In this document: in pieces, positions 4,079 to 20,110 of the stretch
How the letters are laid out: each line of letters begins with the position of its first letter
Position numbering within the stretch: position 1 is the stretch's first letter
Assembly: GCA_050291445.1 (NCBI GenBank)
Contig: JBNKJW010000091.1
Location: 1,659-65,658 of the forward strand
Length of the DNA: 64,000 nt
DNA from: Bacteroidales bacterium
GTDB lineage: Bacteria > Bacteroidota > Bacteroidia > Bacteroidales > NBLH01
Reading direction: 5' to 3'
Notes under the pieces: model-generated
The model's database searches: none
What the model was told of the DNA's origin: nothing
Seen by the model: the letters and a program-made list of their open reading frames with translations, nothing else
Program-made: the position numbers and the translations under genes

Positions 4079-5359
4079 TTACAAATATTCAATAACCTGC
4101 TCAAGTTTAATCCCACGCGATGCTTTTAATAAAATAGTAAAGTTTAGTAGCTCTTTACTTTTAAAAAAATTGCAAAGTGAAAGGGTGTCTGTAAAGAAAT
4201 GGTACTGCCCAAATGAATTGCTAAACTGGTAAAAATTATCACCAATAAAGAAAGCCTTATTAAAACCCAGTTTCGTTACCAGTTCAATAACTTTTAGATG
4301 CTCTTCTTTACCTGATTTGCCAAGTTCAAACATATCGCCCAAAATAAGTGCCTTTTTATCTTCTTTTATATTTAAGAAGTTTTTTATGGCAAGCTCCATA
4401 CTTGTTGGGTTGGCATTGTAGGCATCAATTATTAGTGTGTTTTTATTCGTTTTTTTTAGTTGAGAGCGGTTATTTTGTGGCTGGTATTCTTCAAGAGCAC
4501 TGATAATTTTGTTAGTAGGGATTTTAAAATAGGATCCAACAGATATTCCAGCTAAAATGTTATTAAAATTATACTCCCCAACAAGCCTGGTTGTAATTAG
4601 GTTTTCACCCCATTTTATTTTTAAAAAAGGACTGGAACCAATAAATTCAGCAAAAGTATTTTGCTTGGAACTCTTTCCATAGGTTATTTTAGTAAGGTTT
4701 ATAGCTTGTTTTAGCAATAAGTTATCCTCTCCATTAATAAATACTGTGCCGTTTTTTTTTCTTAAATAGACATAAAGTTCTGATTTGGTTTTTATTACGC
4801 CCTCAAATGAACCAAAACCTTCAATATGTGCTTTGCCAATGTTGGTGATAATACCAAAATCAGGATCTGCAATACCACATAACTCATCAATTTCACCCTG
4901 ATGATTTGCGCCCATTTCTACTACGCCCATTTCCGTTTCTTTTGTAAAAGATAATAAGGTTAAGGGTACACCTATATGATTATTAAAGTTTCCTTTTGTG
5001 TAACCAAGGTTGAATTTTTGTTGTAAAATTCTGCTAATTAACTCTTTAGTGGTGGTTTTTCCATTTGTGCCGGTAATGGCCAAAATAGGAATTTTTAAAT
5101 ACTTTCGATGATATTTTGCAAGCTCCTGGAGGGCAGATAATACATTTTTAACTAGGATAAACTTTTCATTTTTAGCAAATTCCGCTTCATCAACAATAGC
5201 ATAAGATGCTCCTTTTTCTATTGCCACATTTGCATATTTATTACCGTTAAAGTTATCGCCTTTAAGTGCAAAAAAAAGCTGCCCTGTTTCAATTTTCCTT
5301 GAATCGGTGGTTACACCAGATGAATTTAAATAAATTGAATGTAATTTTTGTATTTCCAT
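4079..5359 (-). CDS. murF: UDP-N-acetylmuramoyl-tripeptide--D-alanyl-D-alanine ligase
   Basis: 426 aa. Mur ligase P-loop ITGTNGKTTTKE and DAYNANPTSM motif. Confidence 0.9.
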   Translation of the reverse strand: MEIQKLHSIYLNSSGVTTDSRKIETGQLFFALKGDNFNGNKYANVAIEKGASYAIVDEAEFAKNEKFILVKNVLSALQELAKYHRKYLKIPILAITGTNGKTTTKELISRILQQKFNLGYTKGNFNNHIGVPLTLLSFTKETEMGVVEMGANHQGEIDELCGIADPDFGIITNIGKAHIEGFGSFEGVIKTKSELYVYLRKKNGTVFINGEDNLLLKQAINLTKITYGKSSKQNTFAEFIGSSPFLKIKWGENLITTRLVGEYNFNNILAGISVGSYFKIPTNKIISALEEYQPQNNRSQLKKTNKNTLIIDAYNANPTSMELAIKNFLNIKEDKKALILGDMFELGKSGKEEHLKVIELVTKLGFNKAFFIGDNFYQFSNSFGQYHFFTDTLSLCNFFKSKELLNFTILLKASRGIKLEQVIEYL

Positions 5360-5360
5360 A

Positions 5361-5397
5361 ACTAAAAATAAAAAACCCGCTGTATTTACAACGGGTT
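5361..5397 (-). terminator. Rho-independent terminator downstream of gldJ
   Basis: On the minus strand, AACCCG (12-nt loop) CGGGTT is followed by TTTTTATTTTT. It lies between the gldJ stop (5423) and the murF start (5359). Confidence 0.55.
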
Positions 5398-5422
5398 AAA
5401 AATATAAAGTAAAATTTATTTT

Positions 5423-6937
5423 CTAAAATCCACCTGGGCTACCTACCCTTGTCATTGCACATCTAAAACCTAAGTTTTCCTTTGCTTTTCTTTCATCAAG
5501 ATACCTTCTGGTTCCCGGGCTCATCCAATACATTCTGTCATTCCAGCCCCCGCCTTTGTATACTCTGGTGCGGTCACTTACCATTGAAGTCATATTTTTA
5601 CCTTTGGGGCCTGTTCCTGCGTAGTACATTCGGTCAGAACCTTTTGTATCCGAAACATCCAGCCATCCGCCTTCAGTATCAATGCTTGATTCAACGTCAC
5701 CATCTCTGTAGTTAATATTATCTGCTTTTTGATAGTTATGTCTTGAATAATCATCAGCTACAGGATCGAATGCAATTCTTCCTAAAGAATCTTTGTCTGC
5801 AATGGTTCCATCGGGATTTCTTCTCACAGTTTTAAATACATTTCCTCTAAATGGTCTGAATTCCTCAACATCTAAAGACGATAATTGCCTGAACACGTCT
5901 AAACACCATTCGTTTACGTTTCCAGCCATGTTGTACAAGCCATAATCATTTGGCCAGTATGCATCAACTGGAGCTGGTACCGATGCATTATCATTAAGCG
6001 CACCTGCAACACCCATCATATCACCACGTCCACGTTGGAAGTTTCCACGGAATTTACCTCGGTTTTGCTTGGTGTCATTTCTAACATAATGGCCATTCCA
6101 AGGAAATATTTTACGATTGTATATTCTTTCTGGCGATCCCATTGAGTTACCAATTAAACCAAGTGCTGCATATTCCCACTCAGCTTCCATTGGTAAACGG
6201 TACTTAGGAAGCATGATTCCATCTTCCATTATTGCGTGTCTTTCACCACCATCAAGTGTTGGTAAGTTTTCACGGATACCGCTTTCGTATTGACCTGCTA
6301 AATAGGCTTGTGTATTAAAATTGTCTTCGTCTACCTGGTTAGGGTTAGCCTCAAGAATTCCTTCATCCATTAAAGCCATTTCGTTTACCCTGTCTGTTCT
6401 CCAGGCGCAATAATCGGTTGCTTGTAGCCAACTTACACCTACAACAGGATAATTGTGGTAGGCCGGGTGCCTAAAGTAGTATTCTACGTAGGGTTCATTG
6501 TATGCAAGTTTTTTTCTCCAACAAAGGGTGTCTGGTAAGGCTTGTAAATAAACTTGTGGATAACTTACGTAAACTTTTGCTATCCAGTTCATGTATTCAC
6601 GATAATCGATGTTCCTTACTTCTGTTTCATCCATGTAATATGAAGCTACGGTAACTCTTCTGGGAATATTATTCCAGTCATAAATTACATCCTGGGCAGT
6701 TTGTCCCATTATAAATGTACCGCCTTCGATGAATACTAATCCGGGGCCTGTTTCTTGCTCAACATAATCAGAAACTTCGAAACGCCCAACGTCAGGATCG
6801 TTATATGCCCAGCCAGTTGTAGTGGATTCGCTACCTACACCGGCACCTCCACCTCCTCTACCAAAGCAAGAGCTTAATGAAATGGTTATTATTACTGATA
6901 TTACAAGTAAAACTGATTTAATCTTCATAACTATCAC
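5423..6937 (-). CDS. gldJ: gliding motility lipoprotein GldJ (SUMF1/FGE-like domain)
   Basis: 504 aa. Lipoprotein signal with Cys (ISLSSC) and an FGE-sulfatase-like C-terminal region (RVYKGGGWNDRMYW). The murF/gldJ/porU/porV neighbourhood is as I recall it from Flavobacterium. Confidence 0.85.
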   Translation of the reverse strand: MIVMKIKSVLLVISVIITISLSSCFGRGGGGAGVGSESTTTGWAYNDPDVGRFEVSDYVEQETGPGLVFIEGGTFIMGQTAQDVIYDWNNIPRRVTVASYYMDETEVRNIDYREYMNWIAKVYVSYPQVYLQALPDTLCWRKKLAYNEPYVEYYFRHPAYHNYPVVGVSWLQATDYCAWRTDRVNEMALMDEGILEANPNQVDEDNFNTQAYLAGQYESGIRENLPTLDGGERHAIMEDGIMLPKYRLPMEAEWEYAALGLIGNSMGSPERIYNRKIFPWNGHYVRNDTKQNRGKFRGNFQRGRGDMMGVAGALNDNASVPAPVDAYWPNDYGLYNMAGNVNEWCLDVFRQLSSLDVEEFRPFRGNVFKTVRRNPDGTIADKDSLGRIAFDPVADDYSRHNYQKADNINYRDGDVESSIDTEGGWLDVSDTKGSDRMYYAGTGPKGKNMTSMVSDRTRVYKGGGWNDRMYWMSPGTRRYLDERKAKENLGFRCAMTRVGSPGGF

Positions 6938-16194: not shown

Positions 16195-17145
16195 TCAATC
16201 ATCTACAACACCCCTGGCTGCCTTTATGCCATCCGACATAATGTTGTGGATAGCATGCACATTGGTATGATAACCACTGGTTTTAGTGGTATATTGCCTT
16301 ATTACAATGATTTCAACTCCATCCTGGTTGCTTTGTTCTTTAATTACATTATGCGATGTTGAAACTCCGTTAAAGTACTTTCCTAATCCAAAACCCTCTT
16401 TTGCAACCAAAACTACATAAAAATAAGGGTATTGCTTGCCCTGTACATCGTTGAGTGATACCTGAGCATACATTCCCAGAAACTTTTCCGGCTGGTTTTT
16501 AAATTCAATCTTAATTTTTGTATCCGAAGGATATTTTTGCTCACTCCCTCTCACATAAATTAAATAATCAATTTTATCATCTGTTAGTGCTTGCTCAAAG
16601 CCTTTTAGTACGTTTTGAAATAGCTTAATTTTGTTTACCAGTTGAGGGGTTGTGGTTATTCTTCTTACTCCGGTAAACCAATGAGGATAAAGTAATACAG
16701 CAATATTTGCCACCATGATAAGCGATAGTTTTTCATTTGAAAAAACACCTGTCCCCCAGATTAGTACAAGTATCACAATGCTTAAAATAAAAAACAATAC
16801 TCCTCTCCCACTTGTAATATCAAATGCACTGATATCCCATTTACGAGCTTTCTTATTAATTTCAACAATATTATTAAACTGCTCCTTATCGGTTTTTACC
16901 CATTCCGAACCAGCTTTATATCCTGCTAATTTTATTCTGCTATCATAACCTTTAACCAACAATAGCAAGTTCCCCCCAAAGACAAATAATATTCCAGGGA
17001 AGGTTGCGAGGCTGTAATATTGTAGCACAAAACCAATTGCAATTAGAAAAATGCTCAAAAACAGTCGTACCTGATAGGTCAATGATTTCCAAATGTGAAA
17101 AATCACCACACCTTGTTCTTCTTTCGACAATAACAAAGTACTCAT
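16195..17145 (-). CDS. membrane protein of unknown function (about 4 TM helices plus a soluble C-terminal domain), third gene of the radical SAM cassette
   Basis: 316 aa. Hydrophobic helices at roughly residues 25-45, 48-68, 113-135 and 140-160. Its start overlaps the radical SAM gene stop (ATGA at 17142-17145). I recognise no family motif. Confidence 0.7.
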   Translation of the reverse strand: MSTLLLSKEEQGVVIFHIWKSLTYQVRLFLSIFLIAIGFVLQYYSLATFPGILFVFGGNLLLLVKGYDSRIKLAGYKAGSEWVKTDKEQFNNIVEINKKARKWDISAFDITSGRGVLFFILSIVILVLIWGTGVFSNEKLSLIMVANIAVLLYPHWFTGVRRITTTPQLVNKIKLFQNVLKGFEQALTDDKIDYLIYVRGSEQKYPSDTKIKIEFKNQPEKFLGMYAQVSLNDVQGKQYPYFYVVLVAKEGFGLGKYFNGVSTSHNVIKEQSNQDGVEIIVIRQYTTKTSGYHTNVHAIHNIMSDGIKAARGVVDD

Positions 17146-18527
17146 AATGCTTTTATTTCTAGGGTTTTATATAATTCTTCGTATCCTAAATTTCGCCAGT
17201 ATAATGGACAAGCCCCATTGCAAACAGCCAGGCTCTCGCAGTTTTTACAAATATCATGGGCAAATCCTTTTTCACGATAAAATTTCGCCTGCTTTCCTTC
17301 CCAAACTTCAGCAAATTCAGAAGAGACTAGATTCCCAACAGGCTCATCATAAGAAGAGCACGGCAATACATCGCCATTAGGTGCAACAGAAAGCAAACCA
17401 TCGCAGGCAGCGCATCCTTTGTTGCCTAAATCGTGCGTTATGGTATTAAACATGCAAAGCGGAACTGGCGAATACCACATGAATTCAATTCCTTGTGTCT
17501 TGCTGTTTTCCTGTATTTGCTGAATGATCTCACCCACTTCGCTGTATTTAATTACCAATCCTTCGTTAAAAACACTGCTCCCTGTTGGAATAACCAGGTT
17601 CATGCTAAAACGATCCAATCCAAGCGATTTCACAAATTCAGGTAATCGAATGCAATCTGTCTGATTTTTTTTGTTCAAGGTGGTATTTGTATGAACATGA
17701 ATACCCAACTCTTTAAAAATCTTTACTGTATTGATACTTTTTTCAAAAGCTCCTTTGTGATGCACCAGATTATCATGAGTGGTTGATGTGGTACCTTCAA
17801 TGCTCACCTGCACTGAATCCAGTCCTGCATTCACCAATTTCTCAGCGTATTCCTTATCAATCAAGGTTCCGTTGGTAATCAGGTTCACCCTCATTCCCAG
17901 GTTTTTGGCATATTTTATACAAGCAATTAAAACATCCTGCCTTAATGTTGGTTCGCCACCAGTAAAACTTATTGATGGAACTTTTGCCTTGTTATAAATG
18001 GTATTGATTATCTGCTTAAACTGATCCAAATCAAGCTCCTGATTACTACCTGTTGGGTTAGTGGTGCAATTGCAACCTGCATAACAAAACTGGCATTTTA
18101 AATTGCATTTGTAGGTTAAAGCCAATTCCGACAAAACTGGCAGTTTGCTAAAGCCTAAATCAAATTTTTCTTTTTCAACAGCAGGGTTAAGGCTAAATTC
18201 GTCAAGATTTCCTTCGAGGTTTAGTTTTAAAGCCATCATAAAATCCTCAATTTCAGCTGATTTTGCAGCGTCAAGGTGCTTAACCACATCGGCAATTTTA
18301 CCACCATCCAGAAGATATTGCAGAATTTTTACTGCACTAGCATTTATTTTTGTGGCCTGATTTGGACGTTTGATAAGCATGTTGTCCTCTGTACGGACAA
18401 AAATGTAAGGTTTAACATTGCCAATAAACTCATCTACCCACAATAAATGTGTTTTGTCCTGACTTCGACTTTGCTTAGCCTCACAGACATGATTGCCTGT
18501 GCTTTTTATTTTCTTTTTCCAAAACAT
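17142..18527 (-). CDS. radical SAM / SPASM-domain enzyme with an N-terminal PqqD-like (RRE) peptide-recognition domain
   Basis: 461 aa. Contains CX3CX2C (CNLKCQFC). SPASM cysteines are CAACDG...NGDVLPC and CKNCESLAVCNGAC (CX2CX5CX3C). The N-terminal 110 aa or so (PYIFVRTEDNMLIKRPNQATKINASAVKILQYLLDGGKIADVVKHL...IEDFMMAL) resemble PqqD/RRE. Confidence 0.9.
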   Translation of the reverse strand: MFWKKKIKSTGNHVCEAKQSRSQDKTHLLWVDEFIGNVKPYIFVRTEDNMLIKRPNQATKINASAVKILQYLLDGGKIADVVKHLDAAKSAEIEDFMMALKLNLEGNLDEFSLNPAVEKEKFDLGFSKLPVLSELALTYKCNLKCQFCYAGCNCTTNPTGSNQELDLDQFKQIINTIYNKAKVPSISFTGGEPTLRQDVLIACIKYAKNLGMRVNLITNGTLIDKEYAEKLVNAGLDSVQVSIEGTTSTTHDNLVHHKGAFEKSINTVKIFKELGIHVHTNTTLNKKNQTDCIRLPEFVKSLGLDRFSMNLVIPTGSSVFNEGLVIKYSEVGEIIQQIQENSKTQGIEFMWYSPVPLCMFNTITHDLGNKGCAACDGLLSVAPNGDVLPCSSYDEPVGNLVSSEFAEVWEGKQAKFYREKGFAHDICKNCESLAVCNGACPLYWRNLGYEELYKTLEIKAL

Positions 18528-20110
18528 TAATGTGATCCTCCACTAACGCAAGCTGAATGACAAGCTGAATGGCATGCCGAATGACATGCAGAGTGACATG
18601 CCGAATGACAAGCCGAATGGCAGGCATCATGACATACATTGATATCCTGCAAAATATCCACTGATGGTGCTGTTAAATGATCTGTATCTATTGGGATATC
18701 ATACTCATACTGATGAGGATTGCGGTAATGATACCTGTAATTGAAATAATTAATGTTTCCATAGTACCAGTGGTACCATAAATGGTTTGAGTTTTCCTGA
18801 TAATACTGTTGCTGTTCCTCTTCGGGGATGTTTTTTTTGCCCCAATCACCCATCATTTCGCGATAGTATTTTTTTGTTTCTTCAATATCGCAATCCCAGG
18901 CTTTTTTCTGGATATTTTTAACAATCAGGTTCATCATGTCTTCTAGTTCCTGTTGCGAAAATTCACCATCATCGGCCAATGAATCGTAAAGTTGCTTTTC
19001 GTAAACACCTAAAACACTTGTATCAGGTCCAGGAATAACTTCTACTTTTAAAGGAGATTTTGTTATTACTTTTAAAAACTGCTCATTTTCAAGAATGCTT
19101 ACCATTCCACTTAGGATACTTTTGAATGGAACTTCAAGATAAAAAGTAGCTTCTAATGGGGTTAAATCCATGCATATTTTCCCATCGATATGATAATGCG
19201 AAAGGGTGAGTTTAGGTGGTGTCCAGTCCAGTCTGCCCCAGTCAATTTCGCTAAGGCCTTCTTTGGCTTTTACCATTGATTTATGCTTGCGCCCAACTAT
19301 CAGGTAAAAAATGGCAATAACTACAAGCACCAAAACAATAAAAATGCCCCTGTCTGCCTTTTTTTCGCTCATCGGGACAAAATCAGTACTGTCATACATT
19401 TCTGTATTTCCTAAATTGAACCAATGTGCAGGCATGTAAAATTGGGTGCGCATATGAAACCTTACCGGAGGATACTCTTTATGAAAAACCAGCATCAGTT
19501 TGCCACTTTTACTTTTTTGGTAATCAACCAAAAACTTTTTGTTGACAAACTTCTCGGTCATTATGATGTTCTGGCCCATGTAATAATCCCGTAAAACGGG
19601 GTAGCCTTCCACAGCTTGCTCAGGCAAAATAACTTTTAATGTGTAGTGTTGCATGTTGTGGGCTTCATCCCACTTAACAGGCGACCAGTTAAATACAGTG
19701 AGCATTTGACCATCATCCTTTTGAGTATTAACCAGGTAGCCTGCAGTATTAAAATTGGTCGAAAAATAAAAAACATAAGTAAGATTACCGCTTGAAACAC
19801 CTTTGCCATCTGCAAGAATAATATCCCATTTTTCAGAATCGTATTTGTATATTTTTAACTTGTAGCGATTTCCAAAATCATCAACTGCATAAGATTCATC
19901 TGAAAACTCTTGAATATCAAGCCGCTCATTGCCTTTAAAGTAAAAACCATGCATTTCGCCCGATACTATTTTGTATTGTACAACATAGGCAACATTAGCT
20001 TCACCGTTTTTACTAAGTTCTACCGTTGTTTCAACAAAATTGATGGTGCCGCTTCCTGCAAAAAGATGAAGTGTAAGCAGCATAAAGAAAAGAATACAAC
20101 AAGTACGCAT
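18527..20110 (-). CDS. single-pass membrane protein (DUF2207-like ectodomain) with a C-terminal (Cys-His-Ser-Ala) tandem-repeat tail
   Basis: 527 aa. Signal peptide, then an ectodomain (INFVETTVELSKNGEANVAYVVQYKI..HGFYF). One TM helix, GIFIVLVLVVIAIFYLIVG, followed by RKHK. A Tyr/His-rich segment. The tail is DINVCHDACHSACHSACHSACHSACHSACHSACVSGGSH*. Its stop overlaps the radical SAM gene start (TAATG at 18527). Confidence 0.8.
   Translation of the reverse strand: MRTCCILFFMLLTLHLFAGSGTINFVETTVELSKNGEANVAYVVQYKIVSGEMHGFYFKGNERLDIQEFSDESYAVDDFGNRYKLKIYKYDSEKWDIILADGKGVSSGNLTYVFYFSTNFNTAGYLVNTQKDDGQMLTVFNWSPVKWDEAHNMQHYTLKVILPEQAVEGYPVLRDYYMGQNIIMTEKFVNKKFLVDYQKSKSGKLMLVFHKEYPPVRFHMRTQFYMPAHWFNLGNTEMYDSTDFVPMSEKKADRGIFIVLVLVVIAIFYLIVGRKHKSMVKAKEGLSEIDWGRLDWTPPKLTLSHYHIDGKICMDLTPLEATFYLEVPFKSILSGMVSILENEQFLKVITKSPLKVEVIPGPDTSVLGVYEKQLYDSLADDGEFSQQELEDMMNLIVKNIQKKAWDCDIEETKKYYREMMGDWGKKNIPEEEQQQYYQENSNHLWYHWYYGNINYFNYRYHYRNPHQYEYDIPIDTDHLTAPSVDILQDINVCHDACHSACHSACHSACHSACHSACHSACVSGGSH
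18548..18634 (-). repeat. in-frame 12-nt tandem repeat (7 units plus a final Cys codon) encoding CHDA-(CHSA)x6-C
   Basis: Read codon by codon on the minus strand. The units differ by synonymous changes: Cys TGT/TGC, His CAT/CAC, Ser TCA/TCG/TCT, Ala GCT/GCA/GCC. Confidence 0.9.

Follow-up and report, generated by a model that had tools for sequence, protein, structure and literature searches.

The gene considered here ends in a tandem repeat that is conserved as peptide and diverged as DNA, and the question raised by the locus is whether its mixture of codons reflects selection on the peptide, selection on the codon variety itself, or neither. The window, i.e. the whole stretch of 64,000 nucleotides that was analyzed, comes from a Bacteroidales bacterium with a 6.9-Mb, 35% GC genome, in which the repeat motif is present at one site only. 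The repeat (18551..18634, minus strand) is made of seven 12-nt units, one CHDA and then six CHSA, which correspond to residues 493-520 and form the C-terminus of a DUF2207-like membrane protein of 527 aa (18527..20110, minus strand). In the initial annotation, the units were described as near-identical tetrapeptides written in mixed synonymous codons, with D replacing S in unit 1 only; a recent slippage expansion was considered untenable, purifying selection on the peptide was proposed, and selection against recombinational loss of units was suggested as a further possibility.

Both the codon list and the single replacement proved exact when the minus strand was read. Unit 1, starting at 18634, is TGT CAT GAT GCC (CHDA), and the CHSA units 2 to 7 follow as TGC CAT TCG GCT, TGT CAT TCG GCA, TGT CAC TCT GCA, TGT CAT TCG GCA, TGC CAT TCA GCT and TGT CAT TCA GCT. 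All differences among these six fall at third codon positions, and units 3 and 5, which are not adjacent, have the same DNA. On the 3' side the units are followed by a conserved cap, CVSGGSH with its TAA stop (18527..18550, minus strand), composed of a degenerate eighth unit, TGC GTT AGT GGA (CVSG), and of GGA TCA CAT TAA (GSH and stop), ending at 18527. The start at 18548 used in the initial annotation takes in the Cys codon of this degenerate unit. AGT is found for Ser in the cap, as against TCN in the repeat units. Eight Cys stand at a spacing of 4 within residues 493-521, and the last 35 residues hold 8 Cys and 8 His, the seven repeat units alone accounting for 7 of each. Tandem Repeats Finder reports a period of 12, with 5.9 copies and 84% matches, periods of 24 and 36 scoring higher.

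Conservation was evaluated at two levels, the genus and the wider family of homologues. The gene is present in seven species genomes of the genus, with whole-protein identities of 58-85%. Nine tail sequences were read, including that of the window and one from another family, and Nei-Gojobori counts were obtained for seven full-length copies, of which six are congeneric and one belongs to another family. Each congeneric copy reads NVCHDA(CHSA)6CVSGGSH, from the flanking NV through the stop. When synonymous and non-synonymous differences were counted over the whole tail, Nd was directly observed to be 0 at 82 non-synonymous sites in all within-genus pairs, at pS values of 0.57-0.91, which correspond to synonymous saturation. 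The body of the protein, within the genus, shows a pN of 0.09-0.30 and a pS of 0.66-0.85, and at such rates 7-23 replacements would be predicted in the tails of within-genus pairs. Throughout the genus, Ser is encoded by TCN in the repeat units and by AGY in the cap, a split expected under strict purifying selection, which would forbid the non-synonymous steps that separate the two codon sets. The Gly codons of the cap differ within the genus (GGA, GGT, GGC and GGG).

A scan of one genome per species identified 123 relatives, and the best 80 of the 123 loci were examined. The tail is present in 79 of them, the exception being a contig that ends before it. The holders span about a dozen phylum-level labels, mostly of anaerobic groups, including Bacteroidales MAGs, Aminicenantes, Acidobacteria, Cloacimonetes, Verrucomicrobiales, Planctomycetota, Elusimicrobia, Omnitrophota, Hydrogenedentales, Actinomycetes/Gaiellales/Thermoleophilia, Desulfobulbus alkaliphilus DSM 24258 and Bacillota (among them Acetivibrio mesophilus N2K1). 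The 85 distinct tails examined comprise 645 units, and in 645 of 645 the first, second and fourth residues are C, H and A; position 3 alone varies, with S in 483 units, D in 94, G in 32, A in 19, N in 16 and Q in 1. The unit number is nearly fixed across lineages, being 7 in 43 tails, 8 in 34 and 9 in 8, and it ranges from 2 to 10 in more distant metagenome proteins. The cap takes the forms CVSGG[SGA][HR] and CVSSGH among the 85 tails, and 26 of the 53 invariant columns of a 36-sequence alignment lie within the last 35 residues.

At the DNA level, recoding of the tail is tolerated. In high-GC metagenome contigs, quite different codons spell the same CHDA(CHSA)6CVSGGSH peptide, and the GC3 of tails spans 0.18-0.97 with the peptide kept. 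Tails of the same peptide show a mean DNA identity of 79.8%, compared to about 81% for independent synonymous draws (2.31 differences per 12 nt). Two apparently frameshifted homologues, P0003 and P0027, were considered as cases of decay and rejected: in each, a single indel within a GGGG/CCC run lies a short way upstream of the repeat and an intact tail is retained in another frame, and the rSAM gene is split on one of the two contigs, so that assembly errors are the simplest explanation of both.

Free amino-acid variation or frameshifted repeats among orthologues would have indicated neutral low-complexity sequence; neither was found, since Cys, His and Ala are fixed in the 85 tails and both apparent frameshifts have intact tails. 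The initial annotation had been right to set aside a recent slippage expansion, which does not fit a tail Nd of 0 with saturated synonymous sites, and there is strong support for its proposal of purifying selection on the peptide, from the same count, from the invariance of the units and from the narrow range of 7-9 units per tail. Taken alone the codon pattern is ordinary, being the signature expected of a peptide repeat that is old and under strong selection. What makes it valuable is that it shows none of the Cys, His and Ala residues of the tail to be dispensable for function, in lineages of very low to very high GC. Purifying selection would hold each of these residues and the CVS[GS]G-type cap, and would keep the unit number within a narrow range, the free third positions drifting to the codon-usage equilibrium of each genome; such drift at free positions would be the origin of the codon-scrambled look.

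In order to evaluate whether drift accounts for the codon mixture, the alternative to be considered is that codon variety is itself selected, identical neighbouring 12-nt units being prone to slip or recombine, to change the unit number and to be purged. This corresponds to the selection against recombinational loss put forward in the initial annotation, and mixed synonymous codons in amino-acid repeats have been linked to repeat stability in other systems, for example CAA in CAG tracts and the Notch opa repeats (PMC4632060). In the window, the CHSA units differ on average by 2.2 per 12 nt, against 2.31±0.30 for random draws from the genome codon usage, as taken from 1,743 long ORFs, and the codon frequencies of the tail are close to those of the genome. 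Since both match the genome expectation, the window gene needs only age and drift, and its codon mixture, compared to those of the Notch opa and CAG cases, is quantitatively that of neutral synonymous drift, for which no stabilising selection at the DNA level is needed. Moreover, the adjacent-unit effect expected under slippage avoidance is missing in the window gene, where adjacent units are 2.0 nt apart and non-adjacent ones 2.3 nt, and three congeners contain identical adjacent units.

Family-wide, the lag between units was analyzed in 77 tails sharing less than 90% mutual DNA identity, under two null models; the analysis was exploratory, several tests were tried, and the outcome depends on the model chosen. 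When units were permuted within each tail, adjacent same-peptide units were found to differ by 2.57 nt against 2.31±0.05 expected, identical adjacent pairs numbered 13 where about 24 were expected, and 59 of the 77 tails exceeded their own permutation mean, all of which favours slippage avoidance; units two apart were more alike (2.09 nt). When units were instead drawn from other tails matched for position and GC3 stratum, the adjacent excess was gone (2.57 against 2.60 nt; 13 against 13.4 identical pairs), and what was left was an excess of similarity at lags 2-4, where 25-27 lag-2 pairs were identical and about 10.5 would be expected. For the 31 tails whose peptide is exactly that of the window, the adjacent excess is seen under both nulls (lag 1, z of +2.8 and +3.7), together with lag-2 similarity (z of -3.0 and -3.5); lags 3-5 are null.

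Two other sources of this pattern were discarded. Inherited position-specific codons are ruled out as the origin of the alternation, position-wise codon frequencies being flat, and codon usage made extra even, as engineered scrambling would have it, was not observed: Cys and His codons are somewhat more even than in the same loci and Ser and Ala codons less so, with no consistent direction. The data point weakly to a family-wide synonymous super-period of 24 nt, dependent on the null model, which is compatible with occasional duplication or conversion of two-unit blocks and purging of single-unit slippage. Given the lag signal, the synonymous sites of different units are not entirely independent of one another, and pure drift is slightly too simple a description. 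Much of the signal, on the other hand, is lag-2 similarity, which nearest-neighbour repulsion alone cannot generate. Selection for codon variety as such is therefore judged unlikely, coming as its signal does from an exploratory analysis with several tests, and selection against recombinational loss was not established: the window units behave as random synonymous draws, and the family signal is weak and varies with the null.

The nature of the constraint on the peptide was approached from the protein and its neighbours. The 527-aa protein starts with a signal peptide, followed by a DUF2207/ribophorin-like beta-sandwich (residues ~20-227); the N-terminal DUF2207 profile PF09972 matches residues 22-169 with 26.9 bits against a gathering threshold of 24.4. 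The beta-sandwich is modelled confidently and resembles ribophorin I and the N-domain of M1 aminopeptidase, at a low TM-score (0.27). A single transmembrane helix (254-286), with RKHK directly after it, precedes a winged-helix-like and helical region (318-451), which leads to the tail. By the positive-inside rule, this region and the tail would be cytoplasmic. The Cys/His tail is modelled at a pLDDT of 31-46, which suggests a flexible tail.

Directly downstream of the target gene lies the gene of a radical SAM/SPASM enzyme (rSAM) of 461 aa (17142..18527, minus strand), whose start overlaps the stop of the target gene (TAATG). Both a radical SAM core and a SPASM domain are recognized by profile (PF04055 at 1e-28, PF13186 at 5.9e-10); the CX3CX2C motif is at C141/C145/C148, and the Cys-rich SPASM domain is C-terminal. 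About 125 residues precede the core, the alignment to the PDB entry 8vpo begins at residue 64, and a search of the N-terminal region gave no PqqD/RRE profile match at E<=0.01. The closest solved structures are all those of peptide modifiers, namely SkfB (1.4e-19), PqqE, CteB and SuiB. A third conserved gene, whose start overlaps the rSAM stop (ATGA), encodes a membrane protein of 316 aa (16195..17145, minus strand), for which no family match was obtained. For all three cassette proteins, NCBIfam models score below their own cut-offs.

The linkage of these genes is likewise a direct observation. In 78 of the relatives' 79 loci with a tail, the next gene downstream is an rSAM orthologue, one per cassette; in the 79th genome, of Cloacimonetes, it is found on a separate contig, with 54% identity. 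An orthologue of the 316-aa membrane protein is encoded next to the rSAM gene, on its downstream side, in 72 of the 79 loci, and, of the remaining 7, six break off within the rSAM gene or directly beyond it and the other is the Cloacimonetes locus that lacks the linkage. Given that the genes are linked, that the affinities of the enzyme are with peptide modifiers and that the tail seems flexible, the tail is probably the substrate of the adjacent rSAM enzyme. Precedents in which rSAM enzymes act on the repeats of entire proteins are CrpA/CrpC (PMC13692751) and HxsA (PMC13128918). On the whole, we regard it as highly probable that the tail is a peptide module of ancient origin, held by very tight purifying selection, whose third positions have drifted, and which is probably modified by the coupled rSAM enzyme. 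In such a system a flexible cytoplasmic C-terminus would be modified by the translationally coupled radical SAM/SPASM enzyme, the minimal conserved putative substrate being (CHxA)7-9-CVS[GS]G. Among possible chemistries, the one we consider most likely is a repeated Cys-centred crosslink in each 4-residue unit, for which a thioether is proposed only tentatively; the invariant His may serve recognition or metal binding.

Rather than being modified, the tail might act as a Cys/His array binding metal or Fe-S clusters, with the rSAM enzyme acting elsewhere or using the tail for cluster or electron handling. The density of 8 Cys and 8 His within the last 35 residues would suit such a role, the genes of NifU and cysteine desulfurase (NifS) adjoin one distant cassette, and metal binding is suspected for CrpA, a Cys-repeat protein (PMC13692751). 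The strict adjacency to a peptide-modifier-type rSAM/SPASM gene, which holds for 78 of 79 loci and spans about a dozen phylum-level groups, is however typical of an enzyme-substrate pair, and neither the invariant Ala nor the invariant 4-residue spacing is obviously needed for metal ligation. An unmodified array is accordingly judged improbable, somewhat more so than selection for codon variety.

A neutral low-complexity or recently slipped repeat, or an element acting at the nucleotide level (RNA structure, antisense gene or ribosome-binding site), is extremely improbable, despite the short period detected by Tandem Repeats Finder and a GGAGGA located 8 nt upstream of the rSAM ATG in the window, since third positions vary freely and amino acids do not, the same peptide is kept over the whole GC3 range, the 52-aa ORF at 18481-18639 is merely another frame of the repeat, recent slippage and neutral low complexity are excluded by a dN of 0 at saturated dS together with the family-wide invariance, and the varying Gly codons, by which the cap holds no conserved ribosome-binding site, rule out a Shine-Dalgarno constraint on its SGG.

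The evidence from codons and dN/dS helps to validate an uncharacterised tail-modification cassette, in which the interest of the locus lies, and it favours the view of an uncharacterised tail-modifying system with the DUF2207-like target, the radical SAM/SPASM enzyme and the 316-aa membrane protein as its components. A more specific reading, for which the arguments seem evenly balanced, is that an undescribed rSAM modification is made on each C-H-x-A unit at the cytoplasmic end of a membrane protein, and that the 24-nt super-period stems from genuine dynamics of a repeat whose unit number is fixed. A literature search by repeat type, by DUF2207 with radical SAM and by peptide string returned no relevant paper on the cassette.

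Among known systems, the closest in architecture are the CXXX-repeat targets and their maturases (TIGR04117, TIGR04118, TIGR04115 and PF27846, tSAM_targ_Cxxx_rpt), which have in common a C-terminal tandem repeat with Cys at every fourth residue, beside a radical SAM/SPASM gene. The TIGR04117-type arrangement is found in the window. The CXXX-repeat targets, however, are short peptides (profiles of 46-98 positions), whereas here the repeat ends a single-pass membrane protein of 527 aa, and in the window His and Ala are invariant too. TIGR04117 gives 9.4 bits on the whole protein and 13.5 on the tail alone, against a cut-off of 50, and the window rSAM scores 29.8 bits with TIGR04115 (rSAM_Cxxx_rpt maturase), against 350. 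PF27846 has weak precomputed matches on some distant homologues only, and the resemblance to the CXXX profiles is confined to the repeat. The ACGX rSAM model, TIGR04340, reaches 91.3 bits against a cut-off of 400, its repeat being A-C-G-x and that of the window A-C-H-x. In the antiphage HXS system, the rSAM enzymes HxsB and HxsC mature the HxS-repeat effector HxsA (PMC13128918). It shares with the cassette the rSAM-dependent maturation, here putative, of a protein with a short His-containing repeat, and differs by its H-x-S motif and two rSAMs, compared to a C-H-x-A motif and one rSAM in the window; NF038332 (HxsC4) gives 94.7 bits against 500. PADLOC returned only generic viperin-like rSAM matches. 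Judged from sequence, the cassette appears to work like a CXXX-repeat rSAM target system and to belong to no named family among those tried (TIGR04115, TIGR04117, ACGX, HXS and PADLOC).

PapB acts on a regularly spaced, repeated Cys motif. Together with SkfB and CteB, it belongs to the sactipeptide and ranthipeptide maturases (SkfB, CteB-SCIFF, PapB-freyrasin), which provide the nearest solved structures and profiles, with family scores far below the cut-offs; the putative substrate in the window differs in being the tail of a membrane protein. A large Cys-repeat protein, not a small peptide, is the target in Methanococcus voltae, where CrpC, an RRE-containing radical SAM enzyme of the SPASM type, installs thioethers (ranthionine) on CrpA (PMC13692751). 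The repeated motif of Crp spans 17 residues and contains C-x-x-Q/D, unlike the 4-residue unit of the window, and CrpC belongs to TIGR04463, a model absent from the 25 best NCBIfam matches of the window enzyme. The Crp system has neither a membrane anchor nor a third membrane protein, whereas the cassette described here has both.

The peptide CHDA(CHSA)6CVSGGSH, which ends the tail protein of the window, is also encoded, with GC-rich codons, in two ENA metagenome contigs (L016, positions 5300-5700, and L017, positions 4900-5300). In both of them a one-base indel is found in a GGGG/CCC run shortly upstream of the tail, and it is because of this indel that their called proteins, P0003 and P0027, show the repeat as LPLGLP... 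The radical SAM gene of L017 is, in addition, in two pieces. The upstream indels and the split of the radical SAM gene are probably assembly indel errors. In a congeneric assembly (G004), the tail-protein gene is split across contigs C453 and C206 (loci L007 and L011): on one contig the gene runs out near query residue 478, while its companion starts about 10 residues ahead of the first repeat unit. The repeat is assembled intact. In the window itself, a 52-aa ORF on the minus strand (18481-18639; MYVMMPAIRLVIRH...) is just the repeat read in a different frame; it should not be annotated.

The sequence just upstream of the tail was compared in the alignment of tail-protein homologues. In many distant homologues, from Elusimicrobia, Omnitrophota and others, the motif C-[YF]-[ED]-G-x-F is conserved at a distance of 5-8 residues ahead of the first repeat unit; in its place the clade of the window carries D-I-x-x-x-I-N-V.

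The tail gene and the radical SAM gene of the window overlap by TAATG. Among relatives of the same genus (L025, L026, L031), the two genes are in some cases separated by roughly 120-450 nt, according to tblastn coordinates. Small elements may have been inserted in these gaps, a reading suggested by the MITE-like elements noted from sequence near the cassette of the window in the initial annotation. The sole tail-bearing locus lacking a downstream radical SAM gene is that of a Cloacimonetes MAG (L036, L103), where the orthologue (54% identity, E 1e-161) is found on a separate contig of the same genome. On the contig of one distant homologue (P0032), NifU and a class-V, cysteine desulfurase-like aminotransferase directly follow the three-gene cassette. 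This arrangement could point to a connection with Fe-S metabolism, but it could also be a coincidence.

A further radical SAM ORF is located outside the window, in the same genome (G000, contig C255, 9562-10461; L106). It contains one in-frame TGA, so that it may encode a selenoprotein, be a pseudogene or carry a sequencing error. This ORF is the genome's top match to TIGR04115, the NCBIfam model of CXXX-repeat radical SAM maturases, but its score of 63.7 bits does not reach the cut-off, which is 350.
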